Notes: generated from the letters alone by a model not told the origin. A stretch of 24,000 nucleotides of DNA from Steroidobacteraceae bacterium (GCA_025458905.1 JALORN010000008.1:58016-82015); one strand, 5' to 3'. Shown: positions 3,518 through 22,040, counted from the first letter of the stretch. Program-made: numbers and translations.

Positions 3518-4156
3518 ATGGACGTGAAGACGGTCTGCCTCGGCCTGCTGACCTTCGGCGAGGCGAGCGGCTACGACATCAAGAAGCACCTCGAGGCGGG
3601 CTTCGAGCACTTCTTCTCGACCGGCTTCGGCTCGATCTACCCGGCCCTCGCGGCGCTCGCCGAGGAGGGGTTCGCGACCGTCATCGCCGCGAACCCGGGC
3701 GGGCGTCCCGAGCGCAAGGTGTACCGGATCACCGCGGCCGGCGAGAAGGCCCTGCGGCACGCGCTGTCCACCTGCGAGCCGGCGCACAAGCTGCGCTCGG
3801 AGCTGCTGGCGCTGCTGTACTTCGCGCACCTGGTGCCGCCCGAGCGGATCGGCGCCGTGCTCGACGCACAGCTGGCGCAGATGCGTGACGCGCTGGCACG
3901 GATGAAGCGCACCGGCTGCCCCGGCGAGCACGAGTGGCCAGGCAGCGTGCGCTTCGTGCAGGGGTTCGGCATCGCGCTGCACGAGGCCGCCGTGCGCTAC
4001 ATGGCCGCGAATCGCCAGCTGCTCGTGCCGCCGGCGCCGCGCGTGCCCGCGCCGCGACGCCCGCGGCCGGCGGCGGGCGCGACGGCGGAATCCGTCCGCA
4101 AGCCATCGAAGCCGGCGCGCGAGCGCGCCGTCAAGCACCGCCGGAGGGCCGCATGA
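3518..4156 (+). CDS. PadR-family transcriptional regulator with a Pro/Arg-rich basic C-terminal tail
   Basis: ATG at 3518, 212 aa. The N-terminus CLGLLTFGEASGYDIKKHLEAGFEHFFSTGFGSIYPALAALAEEGF...RKVYRITAAGEKAL is the PadR winged-helix signature. The stop overlaps the next start (ATGA at 4153-4156). Confidence 0.85.
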   Translation: MDVKTVCLGLLTFGEASGYDIKKHLEAGFEHFFSTGFGSIYPALAALAEEGFATVIAANPGGRPERKVYRITAAGEKALRHALSTCEPAHKLRSELLALLYFAHLVPPERIGAVLDAQLAQMRDALARMKRTGCPGEHEWPGSVRFVQGFGIALHEAAVRYMAANRQLLVPPAPRVPAPRRPRPAAGATAESVRKPSKPARERAVKHRRRAA

Positions 4157-5298: not shown

Positions 5299-8200
5299 GC
5301 GCCCCGGACGTGCTGCGCGGCTCCGGCTCCGCGGCGCCCGGGGTCGTGGTCGACAGCTTCATCGACAAGGCGATGCGCCAGAACCGCGCGGTGCTGCTGT
5401 CGCTGCTGGCGCTGCTCGTGGCGGGCGTCGCCGTCTACCTGCGGATGCCCAAGGAGTTCTATCCCGACGTCGAGGTGCCGCTGGTCAACGTGCGCCTGGT
5501 GCATTTCGGCATCTCGCCCGAGGACTCGGAGCGCCTGCTGGTGCGCCCGGTCGAGCAGGAGCTGCGCACCCTGGAAGGTGTCAAGTCGCTGAACTCCCTC
5601 GCCTACCAGGACGGCGCGAACCTCGTCGTCGAGTTCGACGCCGGCCGCGACACCGACGCCTCGCTCGCCGAGGTGCGGGCGCGTGTCGACATGGCGAAGT
5701 CCAAGCTGCCGGCGGACAGCGAGGAACCGGTGGTCGTCGCCTCGACGATGGCCGAGCAGCAGCCGATCCTGGTGCTGAACGTCAAGGGCACCGCGCCCGA
5801 GCGCACGCTGACGCAGCTCGCACGCCGCCTGCGCGACCGCATCGAGGCCGTGCCAGGGGTGCTGCGGGTGAACCTGACCGGTGCGCGCGAGGAACTGCTC
5901 GAGATCACGATCGACCCGCGCTCGATCGAGAGCTATGGCCTCTCGCAGGCCGAGGTCCTGCAGCTCGTCCAGCGCAACAACCGGATCGTCGCCGCCGGCT
6001 CCCTGCAGGCTGCCCAGGGCAGCTTCCCGGTGAAGATCCCCGGCGTGATCGAGGATGCGACCGACCTGCTGAACCTGCCGGTCAAGGCGATCGGCGACCG
6101 GCTGGTGCGCCTCTCGGACGTCGCCACGGTCCGGCGCACCTTCAAGGATGCCGAGACCTTCTCGCGGATCAACGGCGAGCAGGCGATCGCGCTCGAGGTG
6201 GTGCAGCGCGGCAACTCGAACGTGCTGCAGACCGCGCTGACGGTCAAGGACGTGATCGCCGAGGCGCAGCGCGACTTCCCCGCGGGCGCCGGAGTGGTGA
6301 TCTCCACCGACCGCTCGAACGAGATCCTCGACCAGTCGAACGAGCTGCAGAGCCACATCCTCTCGGCCGTGCTGCTGGTCGTGATCCTGATCGTCGCGAC
6401 GCTCGGCGTGCGCAACGCCGCGCTGGTCGCGGTGTCGATCCCGGGCTCCTTCCTCGCCGGCATCCTGGTGCTGGCGATGCTCGGCATGACGATGAACATG
6501 GTGACCATGTTCGCGCTGATCATCTCGGTCGGCATCGTCGTCGACGGCGCGATCATCGTGGTCGAGTTCGCGGACCGGAAGATGGCCGAGGGCCTCGCGC
6601 CGCGCGCCGCCTACGCGATCGCCGCGCGCCGCATGTTCTGGCCGGTGGTGTGCTCGATCGGCGCCACGCTCGTGGCGTTCGTGCCGCTGGCGTTCTGGCC
6701 GGGCTCGATCGGCAAGATGATGATGTACATGCCGGTGACGCTGGTCGCCGTGCTGGCCGCGTCGATCGTGATGGCGCTGCTGTACGTGCCGGTCATGGGC
6801 GCGGCCTTCGGCGGCAGTGGGGGTGGCACGCACGACGCAGGCGAGCGCCACAACCTCGCGATCGCGGAGACCGGCGACCTCGAGCAGCTGACCGGACTCA
6901 CCGGGCGCTACTACCGGTTCCTGAAATGGGCGCTGCGCCATCCCGGGCGCGTCGCCGCGTCCGTCTGCGGGCTGCTGCTCGGGATCTTCGTGCTGTTCGG
7001 ACTGTTCAACCCCGGCGTCGACATGATGCCGCGCACCGACCCCACCTACATCTCGGTCGACGTCCGCGCCCGCGGCGACCTTTCCTCGCTCGAGAAGGAC
7101 GCGCTGGTGCGCGCCGCGGAGGCACGGCTGGCCGGCATGGCCGACGTCAAGTACCACTACGCCAAGACCGGCGCAGGCGGCGGCGGCACGGCGATGGGCC
7201 AGACCGACCAGGTCGGCACCATCCAGCTGATCCTGGTCAACTGGCGCGATCGCCGCAGCAGCGTCGACGCCCTGATGGAGGAGGCGCGGCGGCGCCTCGT
7301 CGGCCTGCCCGGCGCCATCGCCGACGTGCGCCGCAGCGAGGGCATGTCCGGCGGCGGCAAGCGACCGATCGACATCCTGGTGGCCGCGCAGTCGGTCGAC
7401 CAGCTGCTGCCCGCCGTGGAGAGGCTGCGCGCCGCGCTCGATGCGGTGCCGGGCGTGATCAACGCCCGCGACAACCGCTCGCTGCCGGGCATCGAGTGGC
7501 GGCTCGAGGTCAACCGCGCGCTGGCCGCGCGCTTCGGCGCCGACGTCACGACCATCGGCAGCGCGGTCCAGCTGGTCACCAACGGTGTCAAGGTGGGCGA
7601 GTTCCGCCCCGACGACGCCGACGACGAGATAGACATCCGCGTGCGCCTGCCCTATGGGCAGCGCACGCTCGAGCAGCTGGACGCGATGCGGGTGATGACC
7701 AACCAGGGCATGGTGCCGATCAGCACCTTCGTCACGCGCAGCGCCCACCAGAAGATCTCGACCATCAGCAAGACCGACACGCGCCCGACCATGCGCATCG
7801 AGGCCGACCTCGCGCCGGGCGCCCTCGCCGACCAGGTGACGCGGGAGGTGCGCACCCGGCTGCCGGCGCTCGGCCTGGATCCCGGGGTGTCGGTCGCCTT
7901 CGAGGGGACCGCCAAGGACCAGAGCGAGTCCTCGGTCTTCCTGTCGATCGCGCTGCTGGTCGCGATGGCGATGATCGCGATCATCCTGGTGCTGGAGTTC
8001 AACAGCATCTCGCAGACCTTCCTGATCCTCACGGCGATCGTCTTCGCCGCAGGCGGCGTGCTGCTGGGCTACCTCGTCACCCGCAATCCCTTCGGCCTGG
8101 TGATGGGTGGCCTCGGGATCATCACGCTGACCGGCATCGTGGTGAACAACAACATCGTGCTCATCGACACGTACAACGCGCTGCGCGCGGCGGGCGTGGC

Positions 8201-12520: not shown

Positions 12521-12917
12521 CCCGACTTGCCCCACGTGCCGTGCCCTGGACGGCATACAGCCTCGGGCCGCCCGGTGCGGCAGCGGTGACGGAAATCGGG
12601 CGAAACCTGGCGCTGCCGAGACCGGGTGTTGCGTGGCATCCAACGCGGCATCGCGCCGGCAGGTTCATGGGCTGATACAGCGGTTCGCTCGCACGGGCGC
12701 ACGAGACTCGCACGATCGCGGCGCCGGGTCGGGTTGGTCCATCGAATCAGGAGCTTGGAGCCGATCGAGGGTGCTTCACCCGGCCACCATAATCGTTGCT
12801 CATGCCATTCATCAGCATCTGTGTTTTCCGTTGGGCGCGCGGTGGCGCACGATGCGCCGATCCAACATCCGGTCGGTGCGGCCGGGTCGCGTCGCGTTCT
12901 CCAGGGGGATTCAGCTC

Positions 12918-15386
12918 ATGACGATCCATCACACGCCGCCGCGCATGCTGGTCGCCGCGGCGGTCGCTGCCGCGCTCTCGGGCCATGCGGTGGCACAGGC
13001 GCAGCTCGAGGAAGTCACCGTCACGGCGCGCAAGACCACCGAGAACCTGCAGGACGTGCCACTGACGATCACGGCCTTCTCGGCCGACACGATCGAGCGT
13101 GCCAACATCAGGAACGCCGAGGACGTGGTCCGGTACACCCCTGGCCTCAACTTCGACAAGGGTTTCGCGCCGCAGGACACGCGCATCAGCATCCGTGGCC
13201 TGCCGGTCGTGCGCGGCAAGCCGCCGGTCGGCGTGCTGCTCGACGGCATCGACATCTCCTCGGAGTCGATCTCGACCGCCGGCGGCTCGATGCTCGTCAA
13301 CGTCAAGCTCGTGGAGCTGCAGCAGATCGAGGTGGTCAAGGGCCCGCAGAGCGCGCTCTACGGCCGCTCGGCGTTCGGCGGTGCCGTGGTCTACACCTCC
13401 AAGCGGCCCAACCTCGAGCAGGTCGAGGGCAATGCCTCGCTCGAGGTCGCGAGCTACGAGTCCTACGACGCGCGCGCTGCGATCAGCATCCCGCTGGTGC
13501 AGGACAGGCTGTCCGTGCGCATCAACGCGGTCTACAGCGAGTTCGATGGCTTCTACCGCAACACGACCACCGGCAACCGGATCGGCGGCGACGAGTTCGT
13601 CGGCGCCTCGGTGGCGCTGCGCTTCAAGCCGACCGACTCGGCCGACTTCACGCTGCGGGCGTCGTACAGTGAGGACCAGATCGAGTCGCGGCCGTCGTAC
13701 TACTACGGCACCGCCAATGGCCGCACGACCCTGCTGCCGGTGCCCGCCAACGCCGTCGGCCTGCGACTCGGCCTGCCGCCGGGCGGCGCGCCGCTGCCGG
13801 CCACCTGGCGCTTCCCGGCCACCGGGGAGATCACCACCGCCGGGAATTCGATCCGTCTCAGCGTCGACCCCCTGACCGGCCGCGACTTCGAGGCCGGCGA
13901 GCTCAAGCCCTTCGTGCTGAGCCTGGTGGGCGACGTCGACCTCGGCTTCGCGAAGCTCTCGAACTGGACCGGCTACACCAGCGCCGAGAGCTTCGGTCGC
14001 GCCGATGCGGACTTCTTCGCCGCACCGACCGGCAGCGTCACGGTGCCGTCCGCGGGCACCGCGGAGACCGGTCCGGTCATCTTCATCACCGACATCGCGG
14101 TGAAGGCGCGGCAGTTCAGCCAGGACCTGCGCCTCGCGCAGGACGAGGGCCGCCTGCGCTGGGCGATCGGCGCGCTGTACTGGCAGGAGCGCTACGACAG
14201 CGACAACGCCTCGCTGTCCTCGGCACAGTCCGCGCCGCGCCCGGCCGGCTTCTCCGCCGCCCGCGCCTACCAGGTGCTCGGCCAGGCGCCGGCCGCGCGC
14301 AGCGTCCGCGACACCGACCACCGCTCGATCTATGGCACCGTCGGGTTCGACTTCACCGACCGCATCGAGGGCAGCGTCGAGGCACGTTACGCCAAGGAGA
14401 GCGTGGACTCGGTGTTCGGCGCCGCCCTGAACCTGGTCGCGACGCCCGCCGCACCGACACCGTCGTATGCCTTCGGTGTCGTGCCGCTGAATCCCACGCC
14501 GTCGTACGAGACCAGCATGTTCACGCCGCGCGCGATGCTGAAGTACAAGTTCGAGGACGATGCCAACGTCTACGTGTCGTTCGCGCGCGGCAAGAAGCCA
14601 GGCGGCTACCTGAACGTCGGCGTGGTCGCCGACACCCGGCTCGCCCGCTACAACCCGGAGCTGATCGACACCGGCGAGATCGGCTTCAAGTCGAGCTGGC
14701 TCGACAACCGGCTGCGCGTCAACGGCGCCTACTTCAAGTCGTACAACAAGGACCGCCTGAACCAGGTGCTGATCCCCGATGCCGCCAGCCCGCAGGGGGT
14801 CGTGACCCAGGCGGTCAACATCGGCGAGGTGGAGATCGACGGCATCGAGTTCGACTTCACCGCCGCGCTCACCGACGGCCTCACCGCGAGCCTCGCCTAC
14901 ACCTGGCTGGACGCGCGCTACACCGAGTCGGACGCGCCGCAGACCACGGCCTTCGCGGTCGCCGGCCCCGGCAACTGCACGGTCGGCGCGGTCGGTCCGC
15001 AGGTCGTCTGCATCACCAACACCAACGGCAACCAGCTCGACTTCGCGGCCGAGCACTCGATCGCCGCTTCGCTCGGCTACACCCGCGAGCTCGGCGGCGA
15101 CTGGACCCTGGTCTCGGCGATCGACGCGCAGTACCGCAGCAAGCGCTACCTCGACCCGAACAACCTGTTCATCCTGCCGGACTACGTCAACGTGGACCTG
15201 CGCGTCTCGGCCGAGACCGAGAAGTACGGGGTGACGCTGTTCGTCAACAACGCGACCGACGTCGACACCGTCCAGTCGGGACAGACCAGCGGCGACAACT
15301 ACGCGCTGGTGCCGCCGCAGCTGGCCTATACCGCGTATGCGCCGGACCGGCGGCAGTACGGCGTGCGCTTCACCGTCAAGTTCTAG
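12918..15386 (+). CDS. TonB-dependent outer-membrane receptor (paralog 1)
   Basis: ATG 12918 lies in the frame of ORF 12483..15386 and is preceded by AGGGGGA. There is a signal peptide ending AVAQAQ and a TonB-box-like LEEVTVTARK. Plug motifs include IEVVKGPQSALYGRSAFGGAV. The C-terminus is RFTVKF, with the terminal Phe typical of beta-barrel OMPs. Confidence 0.9.
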   Translation: MTIHHTPPRMLVAAAVAAALSGHAVAQAQLEEVTVTARKTTENLQDVPLTITAFSADTIERANIRNAEDVVRYTPGLNFDKGFAPQDTRISIRGLPVVRGKPPVGVLLDGIDISSESISTAGGSMLVNVKLVELQQIEVVKGPQSALYGRSAFGGAVVYTSKRPNLEQVEGNASLEVASYESYDARAAISIPLVQDRLSVRINAVYSEFDGFYRNTTTGNRIGGDEFVGASVALRFKPTDSADFTLRASYSEDQIESRPSYYYGTANGRTTLLPVPANAVGLRLGLPPGGAPLPATWRFPATGEITTAGNSIRLSVDPLTGRDFEAGELKPFVLSLVGDVDLGFAKLSNWTGYTSAESFGRADADFFAAPTGSVTVPSAGTAETGPVIFITDIAVKARQFSQDLRLAQDEGRLRWAIGALYWQERYDSDNASLSSAQSAPRPAGFSAARAYQVLGQAPAARSVRDTDHRSIYGTVGFDFTDRIEGSVEARYAKESVDSVFGAALNLVATPAAPTPSYAFGVVPLNPTPSYETSMFTPRAMLKYKFEDDANVYVSFARGKKPGGYLNVGVVADTRLARYNPELIDTGEIGFKSSWLDNRLRVNGAYFKSYNKDRLNQVLIPDAASPQGVVTQAVNIGEVEIDGIEFDFTAALTDGLTASLAYTWLDARYTESDAPQTTAFAVAGPGNCTVGAVGPQVVCITNTNGNQLDFAAEHSIAASLGYTRELGGDWTLVSAIDAQYRSKRYLDPNNLFILPDYVNVDLRVSAETEKYGVTLFVNNATDVDTVQSGQTSGDNYALVPPQLAYTAYAPDRRQYGVRFTVKF

Positions 15387-15783: not shown

Positions 15784-15800
15784 ACAGGGGGATTCCACTC

Positions 15801-18320
15801 ATGACCATGCCCATCCATCGTCCGGCTCGCGTGCTCGTCGCCGCCGCCGTCGCCGCCGCGATCTCCGGCACCGCGCTCGCGCAGGCGCAGCTCGAGGAGG
15901 TCACGGTCACCGCACGCAAGCGCACCGAGTCGCTGCAGGAAGTGCCGATCACCGTCACGGCGTTCTCCGAGGAGACGATCGTGGCGCAGGGCATCCGCAA
16001 CGTGCAGGACGTCGCCAAGTTCACCCCCGGCCTGTCGTGGGACAAGGGCTTCGCGCCCCAGGACACGCGTCCCAACATCCGCGGCCTGCCGACCACCCGC
16101 GGCCGCCCGCCGATCGGCATCCTGCTCGACGGCATCGACATCTCCTCCGAGTCGATCGCGACCGCCGGCGGCTCGATGCTGATGAACCTGAAGCTGGTCG
16201 ACGTCGAGCGCATCGAGGTCGTCAAGGGCCCGCAGAGCGCGCTCTACGGCCGCGTCGCCTTCGGCGGCGCCATCAACTACGTCTCGAAGCGGCCCAACCT
16301 CGACGAGGTCGAGGGCAACCTGCTGGCCGACGTCGCGACCGACTCGCTCTACGAGGTCCGCGGCGCCTTCAACGTGCCGCTGCTCGGCGGCAAGGCGGCG
16401 CTTCGCATCAACGGCCTCTACAGCGACTTCGACGGTTTCTTCAGGAACGAGATCTCGGGCGAGAACGTCGGTGGCTGGAACACGCGCGGCATCGCCGCGG
16501 CCCTGCGCTTCGCGCCGACCGAAGGCATCGACTTCACGCTGCGCATGTCCTACTCGGACGACGAGGCGGAGCCGCGCGCGTCCTACTACGTCGGCCAGGC
16601 GGTTCCGGGGAGGAACCAGCCGCTGGCTTCGCCGGCCAATGCCGTGGGCGTGCGCGTCGGTGCACCTCCGGGCGCCACGACCGGCGGTAGCGTCGTGCCG
16701 GCCACGATTCCCTATCCTCTGCTCGGCGAGGTGCGCAACTACGATCGCGTCCTGCTCAGCGTCGATCCGCTGACCGGCCGCGACTACGCGGGCGGCGACC
16801 TCGAATCCTTCATCACGAGCCTCGTCGGCGAGATCGACCTCGGCTTCGCGACCCTGACCTCGTACACCGGCTACACCCGCGCCAACGCCCTCAGCGTTTC
16901 GGATGCCGACTTCTTCGCCGCGCCGGCGACGGCCGTCACGCGCCCGACGCCCGGTACGGCGGAGCCGCTGCCGGCGCTCAGCATCACCGACGTCTATTCG
17001 GAAGCCCGTCAGTTCAGCCAGGAGTTCCGCCTCGGCACCCTCGACACCGACGATCGCCTGCGCTGGGCCGTCGGCGCCCTGTACTGGCGCGAGGACTACG
17101 ATGCCATCAACTCCTCGATCTTCATCAGCGGCTTCGTGCGCAACCCGCCGCTGGCGCCGGCAGGCTGGTCCGCGGCCCGTGAGCTGCAGCTCCGTGGCCG
17201 GATCCCGGGTGACCTGAACTTCCGCAACACCCGCCACAAGTCCGGCTACGGCATGCTCGACTTCCGCTTCAACGACCAGTGGAGCGCCTCGGCCGAGTGG
17301 CGCTACAGCGAGGAGGACTTCGACTACCTCTTCGGCCGCCCGATCGCGCTGAACATCGTCCCGGCCACTGGCGCCCTGGTCCCGTGGCCCGGATACACCG
17401 GCGCAACCTTCCGGCCGTCGGCCTCGTCCTCGTTCAATGCGCCGCGCTTCACGGTCAACTACAAGGCCAACGAGGACCTGCTGTTCTACGGCAGCGTTTC
17501 CAAGGGCGTGAAGCCCGCGGGCTTCCTGAACGTCGGCGTGGTGCTGGACGCGAACGACGCGCGCTACGAGCCCGAGACCCTGTGGAACTACGAGGTCGGT
17601 GCCAAGACCTCGTGGCTCGACGACCGGCTGCGCCTGAACGCCGCCTACTTCCACATGGTCTACGAGGATCGCATCACCCAGCTGCTGGTGCCGGACCCGG
17701 GCAACCCGCTCAACCCGCAGGGCACCCGCAACGTGGTCCGCAACATCGGCGAAGCCAAGGTCGATGGCGTCGAGCTCGAGCTGACCGCCGTCCTCACCGA
17801 GGGCTTGACGCTGTCGGCGGCCTACACCTACCTCGATCCGCGGTTCACGGATTCCGAGGTGCCGAACACGGCGCCGCTCAACATCGCCGGGTCGGGCAAC
17901 TGCCGCGTCGGCACGGTCGGTCCGACCCAGGTGTGCTTCACCAACACCAACGGCAGGCAGCTCGAACAGAGCGCGAGGCATGCCCTCGTCGCGACGCTCG
18001 ACTATCGTCGCCCGCTGGCCAATGACTGGACGCTGAACAGCCAGCTCGCCGCGCAGTACCGCAGCAAGCGCTTCACCTCGCCGGACAACCTCACCTGGAT
18101 GCCGGCGTGGACCAACGTCGACGCGCAGGTCGGGTTCGAGAACGAGAGCTTCGGCGTGACGCTCTACGTCACCAACCTGCTCGACTTCGACAAGCCGGTC
18201 TCGGCGCAGACCTACGGTGACCCGTTCATCGCCTCGCCGGTCGCGCCGCCGGTGCTCGCCTACACGACCTTCCCGGCCGACCCGCGGCAGTTCGGCGTGC
18301 GCGCGACGTTCCGGTTCTGA
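15801..18320 (+). CDS. TonB-dependent outer-membrane receptor (paralog 2)
   Basis: ATG 15801 lies in the frame of ORF 15639..18320 and is preceded by AGGGGGA. There is a signal peptide ending ALAQAQ and the sequence LEEVTVTARKR. The plug motif is IEVVKGPQSALYGRVAFGGAI and the C-terminus is RATFRF. It is clearly homologous to 12918..15386 along its whole length. Confidence 0.9.
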   Translation: MTMPIHRPARVLVAAAVAAAISGTALAQAQLEEVTVTARKRTESLQEVPITVTAFSEETIVAQGIRNVQDVAKFTPGLSWDKGFAPQDTRPNIRGLPTTRGRPPIGILLDGIDISSESIATAGGSMLMNLKLVDVERIEVVKGPQSALYGRVAFGGAINYVSKRPNLDEVEGNLLADVATDSLYEVRGAFNVPLLGGKAALRINGLYSDFDGFFRNEISGENVGGWNTRGIAAALRFAPTEGIDFTLRMSYSDDEAEPRASYYVGQAVPGRNQPLASPANAVGVRVGAPPGATTGGSVVPATIPYPLLGEVRNYDRVLLSVDPLTGRDYAGGDLESFITSLVGEIDLGFATLTSYTGYTRANALSVSDADFFAAPATAVTRPTPGTAEPLPALSITDVYSEARQFSQEFRLGTLDTDDRLRWAVGALYWREDYDAINSSIFISGFVRNPPLAPAGWSAARELQLRGRIPGDLNFRNTRHKSGYGMLDFRFNDQWSASAEWRYSEEDFDYLFGRPIALNIVPATGALVPWPGYTGATFRPSASSSFNAPRFTVNYKANEDLLFYGSVSKGVKPAGFLNVGVVLDANDARYEPETLWNYEVGAKTSWLDDRLRLNAAYFHMVYEDRITQLLVPDPGNPLNPQGTRNVVRNIGEAKVDGVELELTAVLTEGLTLSAAYTYLDPRFTDSEVPNTAPLNIAGSGNCRVGTVGPTQVCFTNTNGRQLEQSARHALVATLDYRRPLANDWTLNSQLAAQYRSKRFTSPDNLTWMPAWTNVDAQVGFENESFGVTLYVTNLLDFDKPVSAQTYGDPFIASPVAPPVLAYTTFPADPRQFGVRATFRF

Positions 18321-18409: not shown

Positions 18410-19438
18410 ATGACCGAGTTCGGCATCGTGATGGAGGCCTCGCCGGGCTATACGGCGCGGCTGGCGCGCGAGGTCGAAGCGCTCGGCTTCGACCTGCTGC
18501 TCTGCCCCGACACCCAGAACCTCAGTCCCGATCCGCTCGGCCAGCTGTCGCTGGCGGCGCACGCGACCTCGCGCCTGCGGCTCGGTACCGGCGTCACCAA
18601 TCCCGTGACCCGCGACGTCGCGGTCACGGCCACGGCGTTCGCGACGCTGCAGGCGGAGGCGGGGGGGCGCGCGGTCTGCGGCATCGGCCGCGGTGATTCC
18701 TCGGCGGCGCACGCCGGGCTGCGCAACGGCACCACCGCACAGTTGCGCAGCTTCGTCGAGCGGATGAAGGCCTACCTGCGCGGCGAGACGATCGACCGCA
18801 ACGGCACCGCCTCGAAGCTGCGCTGGCTCGATTCGGTGGACGTCGCGCCGGTGCCGATCGACGTCGCCTGCACGGGGCCGAAGACCATCGAGATGGCGGT
18901 CGACGTCGCGGACCGCGTGAGTTTCGCGGTCGGCAGCGCGCCCGAGCGCCTCGAGTGGGCGCTGGGCGTGGCGCGGGCGCGGCTCGCGGCGACGGGCCGC
19001 CCGCGCGACAGCCTGCGGATCGGTGCCTACGTCAACCTCGTCTGCGATCCCGACGAGCAGCGCGCGATCCACCTCGGGCGGATGATCTCGGGCATGGTGG
19101 CCCACTTCGCCGGCATGAAGGACGCGCCGCTCGACCACCTGCCGCCGCGGCTGCGCCAGGTCGCCGAGGTGATGCAGAGCGGCTACGACATGAAGCGCCA
19201 CGCGCAGGATTCGGGCTCGCACCTGCAGGCCGTGCCCGACGACTTCGTCGAGTGGTTCTCGATCTGCGGGCCGCCCGACAAGTGCCGGGCGCGGCTGCGC
19301 GAGCTGGTCGACCTCGGGCTCGACCACGTCTACCAGCTCGGCGGCTCGCCGGTGGCGCACCCGCATGGGGCGCGACAGGAAGCCATGGTCCGCCAGGCCG
19401 TCCTGTTCGCGACCGACGTGATGCCCTACTTCCGCTAA
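18410..19438 (+). CDS. Luciferase-like (LLM class) flavin- or F420-dependent oxidoreductase
   Basis: 342-aa ORF with ATG 18410 preceded by GTGAGG. The N-terminal TIM-barrel pattern is FGIVMEA...ARLAREVEALGFDLLLCPDTQNL...RLRLGTGVTNPVTRDVAVTATAFATLQAEAGGRAVCGIGRGDS. The C-terminal GPPDKCRARLRELVDLGLDHV is typical of the Mer/LLM family. Confidence 0.8.
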   Translation: MTEFGIVMEASPGYTARLAREVEALGFDLLLCPDTQNLSPDPLGQLSLAAHATSRLRLGTGVTNPVTRDVAVTATAFATLQAEAGGRAVCGIGRGDSSAAHAGLRNGTTAQLRSFVERMKAYLRGETIDRNGTASKLRWLDSVDVAPVPIDVACTGPKTIEMAVDVADRVSFAVGSAPERLEWALGVARARLAATGRPRDSLRIGAYVNLVCDPDEQRAIHLGRMISGMVAHFAGMKDAPLDHLPPRLRQVAEVMQSGYDMKRHAQDSGSHLQAVPDDFVEWFSICGPPDKCRARLRELVDLGLDHVYQLGGSPVAHPHGARQEAMVRQAVLFATDVMPYFR

Positions 19439-19609
19439 GGAAAAAGGGGACCGAAAAAGGGGACAGATTTATTTTTGAAAAAATAGGGACAGATTTGTTT
19501 TCTTCCGTTCTGCGGACTGTCGGTCCGCAGAACGGAAGAAAACAAATCTGTCCCTATTTTTTCAAAAATAAATCTGTCCCCTTTTTCGGCTTTTTCGGTC
19601 CCCTGTTTC
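19439..19609. repeat. AT-rich giant palindromic element filling the whole convergent intergenic gap
   Basis: I checked the arms base by base. 19451-19517 is the exact reverse complement of 19523-19589 (67 nt each) around the loop TGTCG (19518-19522). The outer arms extend about 12 nt further after a 9-nt tandem duplication (CTTTTTCGG x2) on the right side. Each arm contains GGGACAGATTT twice. The left end has AAAAAGGGGA twice. Confidence 0.9.
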
Positions 19610-20770
<1,161 letters not shown>

Positions 20771-21841: not shown

Positions 21842-22040
21842 GGTGCTGCGGATCTCCCGCGCCGACCCCCATCGCGGCGCAACTCGCCCGCCGTCGACCC
21901 GCCCGGCCTGTGGTGCCTGACCGGAAGCGCGCGTCCAGTCGATCCTTGACTTCGTTTTTTCCGTTGCATGGAACATCATCGGATCGGGAACGCCGATGTT
22001 TCCGGGATGTCTGAACGACCACTCCGGAACAGGATCCGCC

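Follow-up and report, generated by a model that had tools for sequence, protein, structure and literature searches.

A perfect 139-bp palindrome between two convergent genes of a Steroidobacteraceae bacterium as a probable gene-less relative of TIRtrons

The 24,000-nucleotide stretch analysed here, which belongs to the genome of a Steroidobacteraceae bacterium (GCA_025458905.1, JALORN010000008.1:58016-82015) and is hereafter called the window, contains between the convergent genes for a luciferase-like monooxygenase (LLM) and for aspartate-semialdehyde dehydrogenase (asd) an AT-rich element, at positions 19439-19609, that is built around a perfect palindrome. The explanation that we favour, with a probability of about 0.82, is that this element is a recently inserted, gene-less and non-autonomous copy of a TIRYT/TIRtron transposon, similar to a miniature inverted-repeat transposable element (MITE) or to a REPIN, the paired form of the repetitive extragenic palindrome (REP), and that it is a predicted terminator besides. 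Since the core of its repeats is dispersed, since genes of the TIRYT type lie between copies of this core elsewhere, and since its sequence fits the motif GGGGWSAS published for the terminal inverted repeats (TIRs) of TIRtrons, the window element can be read as a non-autonomous TIR dimer. Loci from other assemblies are designated below by L numbers.

Dispersal of the repeat and its association with Y1 transposase genes

To describe the family to which the element belongs, we use counts that, outside the window, are minimum or ascertainment-biased values, and taxon labels that for most carriers are the titles of metagenome-assembled genomes (MAGs). Two direct copies of GGGACAGATTT, arranged as GGGACAGATTT-N12-18-GGGACAGATTT, were found in at least 120 metagenome stretches, and a complete scan of the GTDB species-representative genomes for a stricter three-motif architecture yielded 48 stretches. 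Several contigs per MAG carry this architecture in a Steroidobacteraceae MAG (about 13 stretches), a Woeseiaceae MAG (about nine) and a Desulfobacteraceae MAG (seven); further carriers include two Coprothermobacterota MAGs, an Aerophobetes MAG, Thermoanaerobaculia, Acetobacteraceae, Desulfobulbales and Motiliproteus, together with the isolates Pseudomonas sp. PLMAX and P. graminis. The 11-nt core, mostly extended by ATTTT, is found across several phyla and is locally dense in some MAGs, with up to three to five separate elements in a single 8-kb locus. When compared over its full length, the window element matches copies from Steroidobacteraceae and Woeseiaceae MAGs at 72-80%. These data, together with the transposase link, the empty sites and the base composition reported below (41% versus 71% GC), support what a preliminary description of the window had proposed as one of three readings, namely, a MITE- or REP-like dispersed element of foreign composition.

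The usual layout of the family consists of an A-run, the core GGGGACAGATTTATTTT, a hairpin in the centre (20-45 nt, variable and for the most part imperfect), AAAATAAATCTGTCCCC and a T-run, and a short form reads GGGGACAGATTT-N-AAATCTGTCCCC. The core GGGGACAGATTTATTTT is not self-complementary, a hairpin being formed only when two inverted copies pair. In many cases each arm has two TIRs, with truncated extra copies outside them, and this is exactly the layout of the window element. What sets the latter apart is its perfection: the longest perfect arm has a median of 17 nt among 169 dimeric elements, the 67 nt of the window being the second longest value, and only two other near-complete perfect palindromes with a tiny loop were encountered, in L112 (57-nt arms, 1-nt loop) and L007 (53-nt arms, 4-nt loop). 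A variant of the short form, in a Coprothermobacterota MAG (L133, 1290-1420), bears two extra right-hand TIR copies and begins about 11 nt past an apparent tRNA 3' end (GGTTCGAGTCC...GCGCACCA). Viral carriage of the family was considered and set aside, as a 16-mer scan of viral contigs gave 36 matches, roughly not clearly above chance and mostly solitary; no transposase homologue was found in these 36 matches, and only L216, described below, holds a real array. A literature text search with the 11-mer core returned, among the matches listed, only eukaryotic primer or antibody sequences.

The association with a transposase is illustrated by a Steroidobacteraceae locus (L127), where a core on the plus strand and a core on the minus strand lie 850 bp apart and enclose an open reading frame (ORF) of 261 codons. 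Its product matches Pfam Y1_Tnp with 39 bits (cutoff 23), and its best NCBIfam match is REP_Tyr_transpos, the REP-associated tyrosine transposase (RAYT), with 75.7 bits, under the cutoff of 80 bits. Used as a tblastn query, this protein matched at least 16 other loci at 45-60% identity, all of which had been gathered by the DNA motif alone. A core lies within about 10-60 bp of the transposase gene in 12 of the 12 loci examined, the cores being inverted on both sides of the gene in ten and present on one side only in two (L053 and L082), and the downstream TIR often overlaps the transposase stop codon. The loci in which inverted TIRs flank a Y1/HUH gene are L127, L139, L072, L087, L089, L106, L033, L117, L066 and L101, with three further copies in L184. 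In L089, a small metagenome contig, two TIRYT genes (215-937 and 1709-2047), about 51-54% identical to the L127 protein, are situated within 2 kb, the second running off the contig end.

These transposases are of the kind called TIR-associated tyrosine transposases (TIRYT). TIRYT tkm 1558, whose sequence is that of the supplementary alignment of Di Nocera et al., 2013 (BMC Genomics 14:522, PMC3733652), shows 67% identity with the L033 protein and 53% with that of L127, as compared with 22% (E = 3e-8, pairwise BLASTP) for E. coli TnpA_REP. Five of the proteins obtained 66.4-78 bits with the RayT equivalog model NF047646, which is below its cutoff of 80 bits, and 17-28 bits with the IS200 model NF033573, whose cutoff is 55. 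The motifs NHVH, WE and Y[IV]xLNP and a long C-terminal tail are visible in the transposases, which have about 230-260 aa, and a phmmer search of PDB with a single transposase gave no match at E <= 0.01.

TIR copies are also dispersed in genomes that bear the transposase, namely, the Steroidobacteraceae MAG DASQOR01, the Woeseiaceae MAG DATGQI01 and P. aeruginosa 2858. The record of the last (L184, NZ_CP116719.1, 'plasmid unnamed1', 24.3 kb), to which the one short match of a plasmid DNA search with the window element had led, contains three TIRYT genes annotated only as 'transposase', two of which are identical (WP_033954923.1). It also holds no fewer than five derivatives shortened by internal deletion to about 160-180 bp, and their TIR is GGGGACAGATTTATTTTCCCTACTCTAAT throughout. 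Genes and derivatives are interspersed in this record with orphan toxin/immunity-like cassettes (DUF637, EndoU, deaminase, glutamine deamidase and non-specific endonuclease), which the TIRYT element may help to shuffle.

Structure of the element, its arrival and the gene ends

The arms of the palindrome (19451-19517 and 19523-19589) are 67 nt long and 100% complementary around the 5-nt spacer TGTCG, and 26 of the 67 arm bases are G or C, exactly as the preliminary description had it. Likewise borne out are its statements that the element runs from the TAA of LLM (19436-19438) to the TAA of asd (19610-19612), and that there are direct repeats within each arm and a 9-nt tandem duplication towards the right end: GGGACAGATTT occurs twice per arm, with four matches in the window, all within the element, against 0.04 expected by chance, and the duplication is of CTTTTTCGG. 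The coordinates of these parts are collected in Table 1. That description was silent on an outer pair of segments (19440-19459/19590-19609), which are 95% complementary and whose offset is caused by the 9-nt duplication, probably a slippage product. Pairing extends still further, to the last and stop codons of both flanking genes (CCGCTAAG, 19432-19439, versus CTTAGCGG, 19610-19617), and thus the TAA with which each gene ends, together with the last codon before it, falls within the extended palindrome. Inner and outer TIR copies of an arm are 86% identical; the outer ones contain GGGGACAG (19459-19466, mirrored at 19574-19581) and the inner ones AGGGACAG. The junction AAAAAGGGGAC-CG-AAAAAGGGGACAG of the outermost left copy also occurs in Pseudomonas sp. 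PLMAX (L144).

The predicted RNA fold of the element has -145.1 kcal/mol, compared with -50.4 +/- 4.5 for shuffled sequences (z = -21). Its GC content is 41.5%, compared with 71.4% for the window, where it is the only strong AT island. The sole other stretch below 50% GC (47%), at 21941-22002, is located in the gap upstream of an ORF starting at 21968, contains TTGACT...T-run and may be a promoter region. No match to Rfam was found in the window at gathering thresholds, and the E-value mode gave only generic long-hairpin matches to eukaryotic miRNA precursors, far below gathering scores, which we discarded as hairpin artefacts. Iterons or a replication origin, a dif/Xer site, a CRISPR, a retron msd and DNA uptake sequences were also dropped as candidates, given that neither associated genes nor matching motifs were found.

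Table 1. Positions in the window of the element, its parts and the two flanking genes.
Feature	Positions	Strand	Remarks
Whole AT-rich element, probable non-autonomous TIR dimer of the TIRYT/TIRtron family	19439-19609	.	171 bp; fills the LLM/asd gap exactly
Outermost truncated TIR copy, left side, GAAAAAGGGGAC, followed by CG (19452-19453)	19440-19451	+	From the sequence
Outer full TIR copy, left arm, AAAAAGGGGACAGATTTATTTTTG	19454-19477	+	Matches family core GGGGACAGATTTATTTT and published GGGGWSAS
Inner TIR copy, left arm (variant), AAAAAATAGGGACAGATTTGTTTTC	19478-19502	+	86% identical to outer copy
Central G+C-richer hairpin, stem TTCCGTTCTGCGGAC / GTCCGCAGAACGGAA, loop TGTCG (19518-19522)	19503-19537	.	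From sequence and fold
Inner TIR copy, right arm	19538-19562	-	Mirrors 19478-19502 exactly
Outer full TIR copy, right arm	19563-19586	-	Mirrors 19454-19477 exactly
9-nt tandem duplication, CTTTTTCGG x2	19581-19598	+	Sole asymmetry between arms; recovered independently in L186
Outermost truncated TIR copy, right side, GTCCCCTGTTTC	19598-19609	-	95% complementary to 19440-19459
LLM gene	18410-19438	+	Pfam Bac_luciferase, 172 bits; CGC TAA end inside extended palindrome
asd gene	19610-20638	-	Pfam Semialdhyde_dh and Semialdhyde_dhC; 342 aa in L001

The LLM-asd junction of related genomes bears on when the element arrived. Going by the source names of LLM homologues, the organism falls within Gammaproteobacteria, close to Steroidobacteraceae. 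Ranked by LLM identity, the relatives are L173, L175 and L183 (89%), L179 (87%) and L180-182 (83%), all of which keep the synteny of TonB receptor, LLM and asd, and all of which have an empty site at this junction. Their gap is 28-30 bp long, GC-rich and occupied by a small GC hairpin, except in L179, where it consists of about 230 bp (5943-6180) of GC-rich repetitive filler with GCAGC/GCCGC-type units, an intergenic repeat of a different kind; both genes end in TGA in these relatives, and GGGGACAG was not found within the 4-21 kb of sequence available for them. A simpler version of the element occupies the same site in L172, a relative at 97% that shares its sample with L003 and that reads TAG-GGAAAAAAGGGGACAGATTTATTTTTTTCCTTTCTGCGGCCC-AAC-GGGCCGCAGAAAGGAAAAAA up to the contig end. 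Its left arm has a single TIR, and its central stem, TTTCCTTTCTGCGGCCC AAC GGGCCGCAGAAAGGAAA, is homologous to that of the window, with the differences mirrored on both sides; the window form has one more full TIR per arm as well as the truncated outer copy. Because the site is empty in the 83-89% relatives and the 97% relative has this simpler version, the insertion is recent and its structure still evolving, in line with the recent insertion that the preliminary description had put forward, next to gene conversion and selection, on account of the perfect arms. The arrival of the element can thus be dated after the split from the relatives with 89% LLM identity. The LLM stop of the window is at the same codon position as in the relatives (there TGA or TAG), and asd ends four residues earlier than it does in the 89% relatives (..AARRQRKS*), the C-terminal length being variable in an 83% relative too.

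Further upstream, the window encodes tandem TonB-dependent receptor paralogues (12902-15368 and 15785-18302) with about 68% DNA identity. The second of these is intact in L002 and L003 (839 aa) and divided into two genes (261 and 558 aa) in L001, pointing to one population with a frameshift or pseudogene variant.

Members of the family lie by preference just past gene ends. An ORF of at least 120 codons ends within 40 nt of the outermost core in 130 of 301 testable flanks (43%), compared with 56 of 865 random positions in the same loci (6.5%), and 36 of 128 elements (28%) are located between convergent ORF ends. The adjoining stop codons are TAA (50), TGA (49) and TAG (31), and 54% of the cores are followed by at least three T in the next four nucleotides. 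In the window, the base of the stem, GGGGAC...GTCCCC, is flanked by A5 and T5, such that a T5 follows the stem on both strands, an arrangement that fits a predicted bidirectional intrinsic terminator, as proposed for REPs. The suggestion that the element is an unusually long bidirectional terminator is therefore compatible with the enrichment at gene 3' ends and with the A5/T5 pair, albeit as a secondary role, and it drew no support from a terminator scan, as discussed below.

Alternative explanations and a proposed mechanism

Perfect inverted repeats invite the suspicion of an assembly artefact, that is, a fold-back chimera produced by the assembler, which for the following reasons we hold to be extremely improbable. 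The identical LLM protein is encoded on contigs of three JGI metagenomes. Another metagenome assembly (L001) contains the full element in identical form, and in sample 3300049811 both halves were recovered separately on two contigs (L002 and L186) that break inside the palindrome. The left arm and loop were recovered in L003; L002 and L003 end just beyond the loop, and L186 opens within the right arm, whose sequence it repeats with the 9-nt duplication in place. In two of the three samples (3300049811 and 3300048597), there are thus four contigs that break within the palindrome or its homologue (L002, L003 and L172 at their ends, L186 at its start), which could be taken as a sign of an artefact. 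However, such breaks are the expected effect of a perfect inverted repeat on short-read assemblers and are no argument against the sequence. Moreover, unlike and unique genes flank the two sides, the 9-nt duplication makes the outer arms asymmetric, and homologous elements are present in the complete isolate genome of Pseudomonas sp. PLMAX (L144) and in the isolate assemblies of P. graminis UASWS1507 (L163) and P. aeruginosa 2858 (L184). In practice, short-read assemblies break at perfect arms of 50 nt or more; as the perfect inverted repeats of this family fragment such assemblies systematically, copy numbers in MAGs are probably underestimated.

A real element could still be a single-copy bidirectional terminator that evolved locally, its hairpin having grown in place without ever moving. 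The exact filling of the convergent gap, the A-tract and T-tract on either side of a stem whose base is GC-rich, and the small GC hairpin at this position in the relatives agree with such an origin. Yet the 17-nt core and the nested layout recur at more than 160 unrelated loci in many taxa and also flank a transposase gene, the gaps of the 83-89% relatives are GC-rich and unrelated, and the composition of the element is foreign, so that we judge a local origin highly improbable, and in fact effectively refuted by the dispersal and the empty sites. A mobile origin, in turn, could be that of a canonical REP or REPIN of the sort that group 2/3 RAYTs move in E. coli or Pseudomonas fluorescens, to which inverted repeat pairs forming a long hairpin, an extragenic location just past gene ends, a Y1 transposase homologous to TnpA_REP and REP_Tyr_transpos as the best NCBIfam match would all conform. 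This we consider unlikely, as the transposases score 66-78 bits, under the equivalog cutoff, are far closer to TIRYT than to E. coli TnpA_REP, and carry the long C-terminal tail typical of subclass 2.1 of the TnpAY1 transposases. Neither GTAG nor GTGG was found at the foot of the TIR in the window element or in the family consensus, and a single repeat is not a palindrome; these two features set the element apart from the canonical type, in which each REP is an imperfect palindrome of 20-40 nt with a 5' GT[AG]G tetranucleotide at its hairpin foot. Finally, a classical MITE derived from an insertion sequence (IS) with a DDE transposase, such as IS630/Tc1 (TA target) or IS5 (TNA target), would account for terminal inverted repeats, small size, AT-richness and the TAA/TTA at both borders. 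There is, however, no direct target-site duplication, the flanks CCGCTAAG/CTTAGCGG being inverted, and no consistent one across the eight copies of P. aeruginosa 2858; furthermore, none of the 12 or more full-length copies has a DDE transposase between its TIRs, all of them encoding a Y1/HUH protein. With no target-site duplication and with parents that bear a Y1 transposase, a DDE-type MITE is very hard to sustain.

IS200/IS605 elements and palindrome-associated transposable elements (PATEs) lack TIRs, have hairpins in a subterminal position and encode a TnpA of about 150 aa. They were ruled out given the true TIRs, the protein of about 230 aa and the low scores with NF033573 (17-28 bits versus 55).

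Several observations weigh against the TIRtron origin that we prefer, or against parts of it. The sequence examined from the source genome amounts to about 32 kb (the window plus L185) and holds one element: no TIRYT gene and no second TIR copy were found in it, which agrees with the remark in the preliminary description that no transposase or integrase is nearby, as far as the transposase and the window are concerned, and which means that mobility in this genome is deduced from relatives. The TIRYT/RAYT literature cited here yielded no biochemical data on TIRYT. From the loci compared, neither a cleavage site nor a target rule nor a target-site duplication was derivable, the flanks being inverted rather than direct, and no demonstrated mechanism explains the nested double-TIR symmetry. 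As for the terminator, a consensus scan returned no sites, a result that is uninformative for such a stem, since the scan models stems of up to 20 bp and the T-tract follows a stem of 41-67 bp; in addition, the inner 20-bp stem is followed by A-rich sequence.

With these points in mind, the following scheme is offered for the TIRtron origin. The full-length TIRtron consists of an IS200-like HUH/Y1 TIRYT transposase gene between terminal inverted repeats with the core (A)nGGGGACAGATTTATTTT, and the window copy would be a derivative whose transposase gene has been replaced by the central hairpin of about 35 nt. Each element end comprises two TIR copies and a truncated third, so that in single-stranded DNA or RNA the ends pair as one long hairpin. 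HUH/Y1 enzymes, for example, IS608 TnpA and E. coli TnpA_REP, act on single-stranded DNA; by analogy with these, mobilisation may occur in trans, the substrate of TIRYT then being single-stranded DNA with its inverted TIRs paired. The suggestion in the preliminary description of a protein-recognition or recombination site is retained only in this sense, as presumed recognition sequences of the transposase.

As to the symmetry of the arms, it may be kept or made by hairpin-templated copying, i.e. template switching in quasi-palindromes, which is a known mutagenic process, or else by one-step fold-back synthesis. The inner and outer TIRs differ from one another and yet each is mirrored exactly, which argues for arm-to-arm copying or one-step fold-back rather than for duplications that took place separately in the two arms. 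Slippage, in contrast, may give rise to the partial outer copies and the 9-nt duplication, as suggested by truncation points scattered over 5-10 nt, with ends after GGGAC or GGGACA being the commonest (52 of 81), and by the (TTTTGTCC)n arrays of L216. In the latter, an IMG/VR contig (3300046542_000320, positions 3650-3900), four TIR cores lie on the same strand, each followed by long TTTTGTCC arrays of up to about eight copies, an extreme form of stepwise partial duplication at the outer ends of TIRs. A model in which the truncated outer copies reveal the cleavage site was dropped, as the spread of their ends looks like slippage. At the LLM-asd junction, the A5-GGGGAC...GTCCCC-T5 hairpin, a predicted bidirectional intrinsic terminator, may also stabilise the 3' ends of both transcripts, in which case it would replace the short GC-rich hairpin of the relatives.

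It is tempting to speculate further, although we would sooner bet against this than for it, that TIRYT (group 1 RAYT, or subclass 2.1) drives a REPIN-like population of its own, with a core that is invariant from Coprothermobacterota to Pseudomonas, landing by preference at gene 3' ends, providing portable bidirectional terminators and growing by nested or templated duplication into tolerated perfect palindromes of more than 130 bp. The invariance of the 11-17-nt TIR core over this range would imply a recent inter-phylum spread of a single Y1 transposon lineage. If true, gene-less dimers would often supply a stop codon, as here for both convergent genes, and, provided that dimers terminate in both directions, a selfish element would be delivering a ready-made gene-end signal, stop codon included. 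Regardless of this, an odd perfect palindrome finds an explanation as an identifiable mobile element of a known, little-studied kind. Our data tie one clade of the little-studied TIRYT enzymes to an abundant and searchable satellite repeat with a fixed 17-nt core, which serves both for biochemistry, as a concrete substrate on which the binding and cleavage of TIR hairpins in single-stranded form can be examined, and as a marker for tracing horizontal spread across phyla.

Comparison with known transposons and repeats

The closest known system is that of the TIRtrons, a name given by Di Nocera et al., 2013 (PMC3733652) to units in which RAYT-like genes, 'TIRYT', are flanked by terminal inverted repeats. 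The text and supplements of this paper describe a common TIR motif, GGGGWSAS, and moderately abundant TIR families that occur as singles, dimers and clusters. GGGGACAG fits this motif, the inverted TIRs described here likewise flank a Y1/HUH transposase gene at short and fixed distances, and they too occur without the gene as singles, dimers and clusters; the transposases, moreover, are 53-67% identical to tkm 1558. There are also differences with respect to what those parts of the paper report: the published TIRtrons are moderately abundant in few complete genomes, whereas the present family extends over several phyla with high local density, and the doubled TIRs, the nested symmetry and the stepwise truncated outer copies are features of the present family, with the fully perfect 139-bp palindrome of the window as its own peculiarity. 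The core sequence was not found in the text and supplements of PMC3733652, figures being outside this statement.

Most TIRYTs correspond to TnpAY1 subclass 2.1, equivalent to group 1 of Bertels, whose proteins have a median of 238 aa, a C-terminal tail that is conserved, and NHVH, WE and Y[IV]xLNP as motifs (Quentin et al., 2018, PMC6006769). In a census of RAYTs, group 1 was the largest and showed IS-like traits, in that it has duplicates, occurs on plasmids and covers a wider range of taxa than any other group (Bertels et al., 2017, PMC5581495). The transposases described here share the key motifs, the length, the tail and a wide, patchy spread, and sometimes have multiple identical copies or a plasmid location. 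However, Quentin et al. found no REP-like sequences adjoining subclass 2.1 genes, and Bertels et al. only about 12 occurrences per replicon of the 16-mers flanking group 1 genes; unlike this published picture of absent or sparse partners, the clade analysed here has, in the loci examined, an abundant REPIN-like satellite population.

In Neisseria, paired inverted DNA uptake sequences and Correia elements act as terminators; with these, the family shares a short conserved motif, inverted pairs just downstream of genes and ready-made terminator hairpins. The Neisseria elements are restricted to one lineage and tied to competence or to other transposition systems, whereas the motif described here is tied to a Y1 transposase and spans phyla. 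With the REPINs and bacterial interspersed mosaic elements (BIMEs) that accompany group 2/3 RAYTs (Bertels and Rainey, 2011; Nunvar et al., 2010; Ton-Hoang et al., 2012), the family has in common two inverted repeats that form a long hairpin, the condition of non-autonomous partner of a Y1 transposase that is itself flanked by the repeat, and an extragenic position, enriched after gene ends and between convergent genes, where both probably serve as terminators or mRNA stabilisers. Unlike REPINs and BIMEs, however, it has neither the GTAG/GTGG foot nor a palindromic repeat unit, its transposase belongs to another subclass and scores below the RayT equivalog cutoff, and its distribution suggests horizontal spread rather than strict vertical inheritance.

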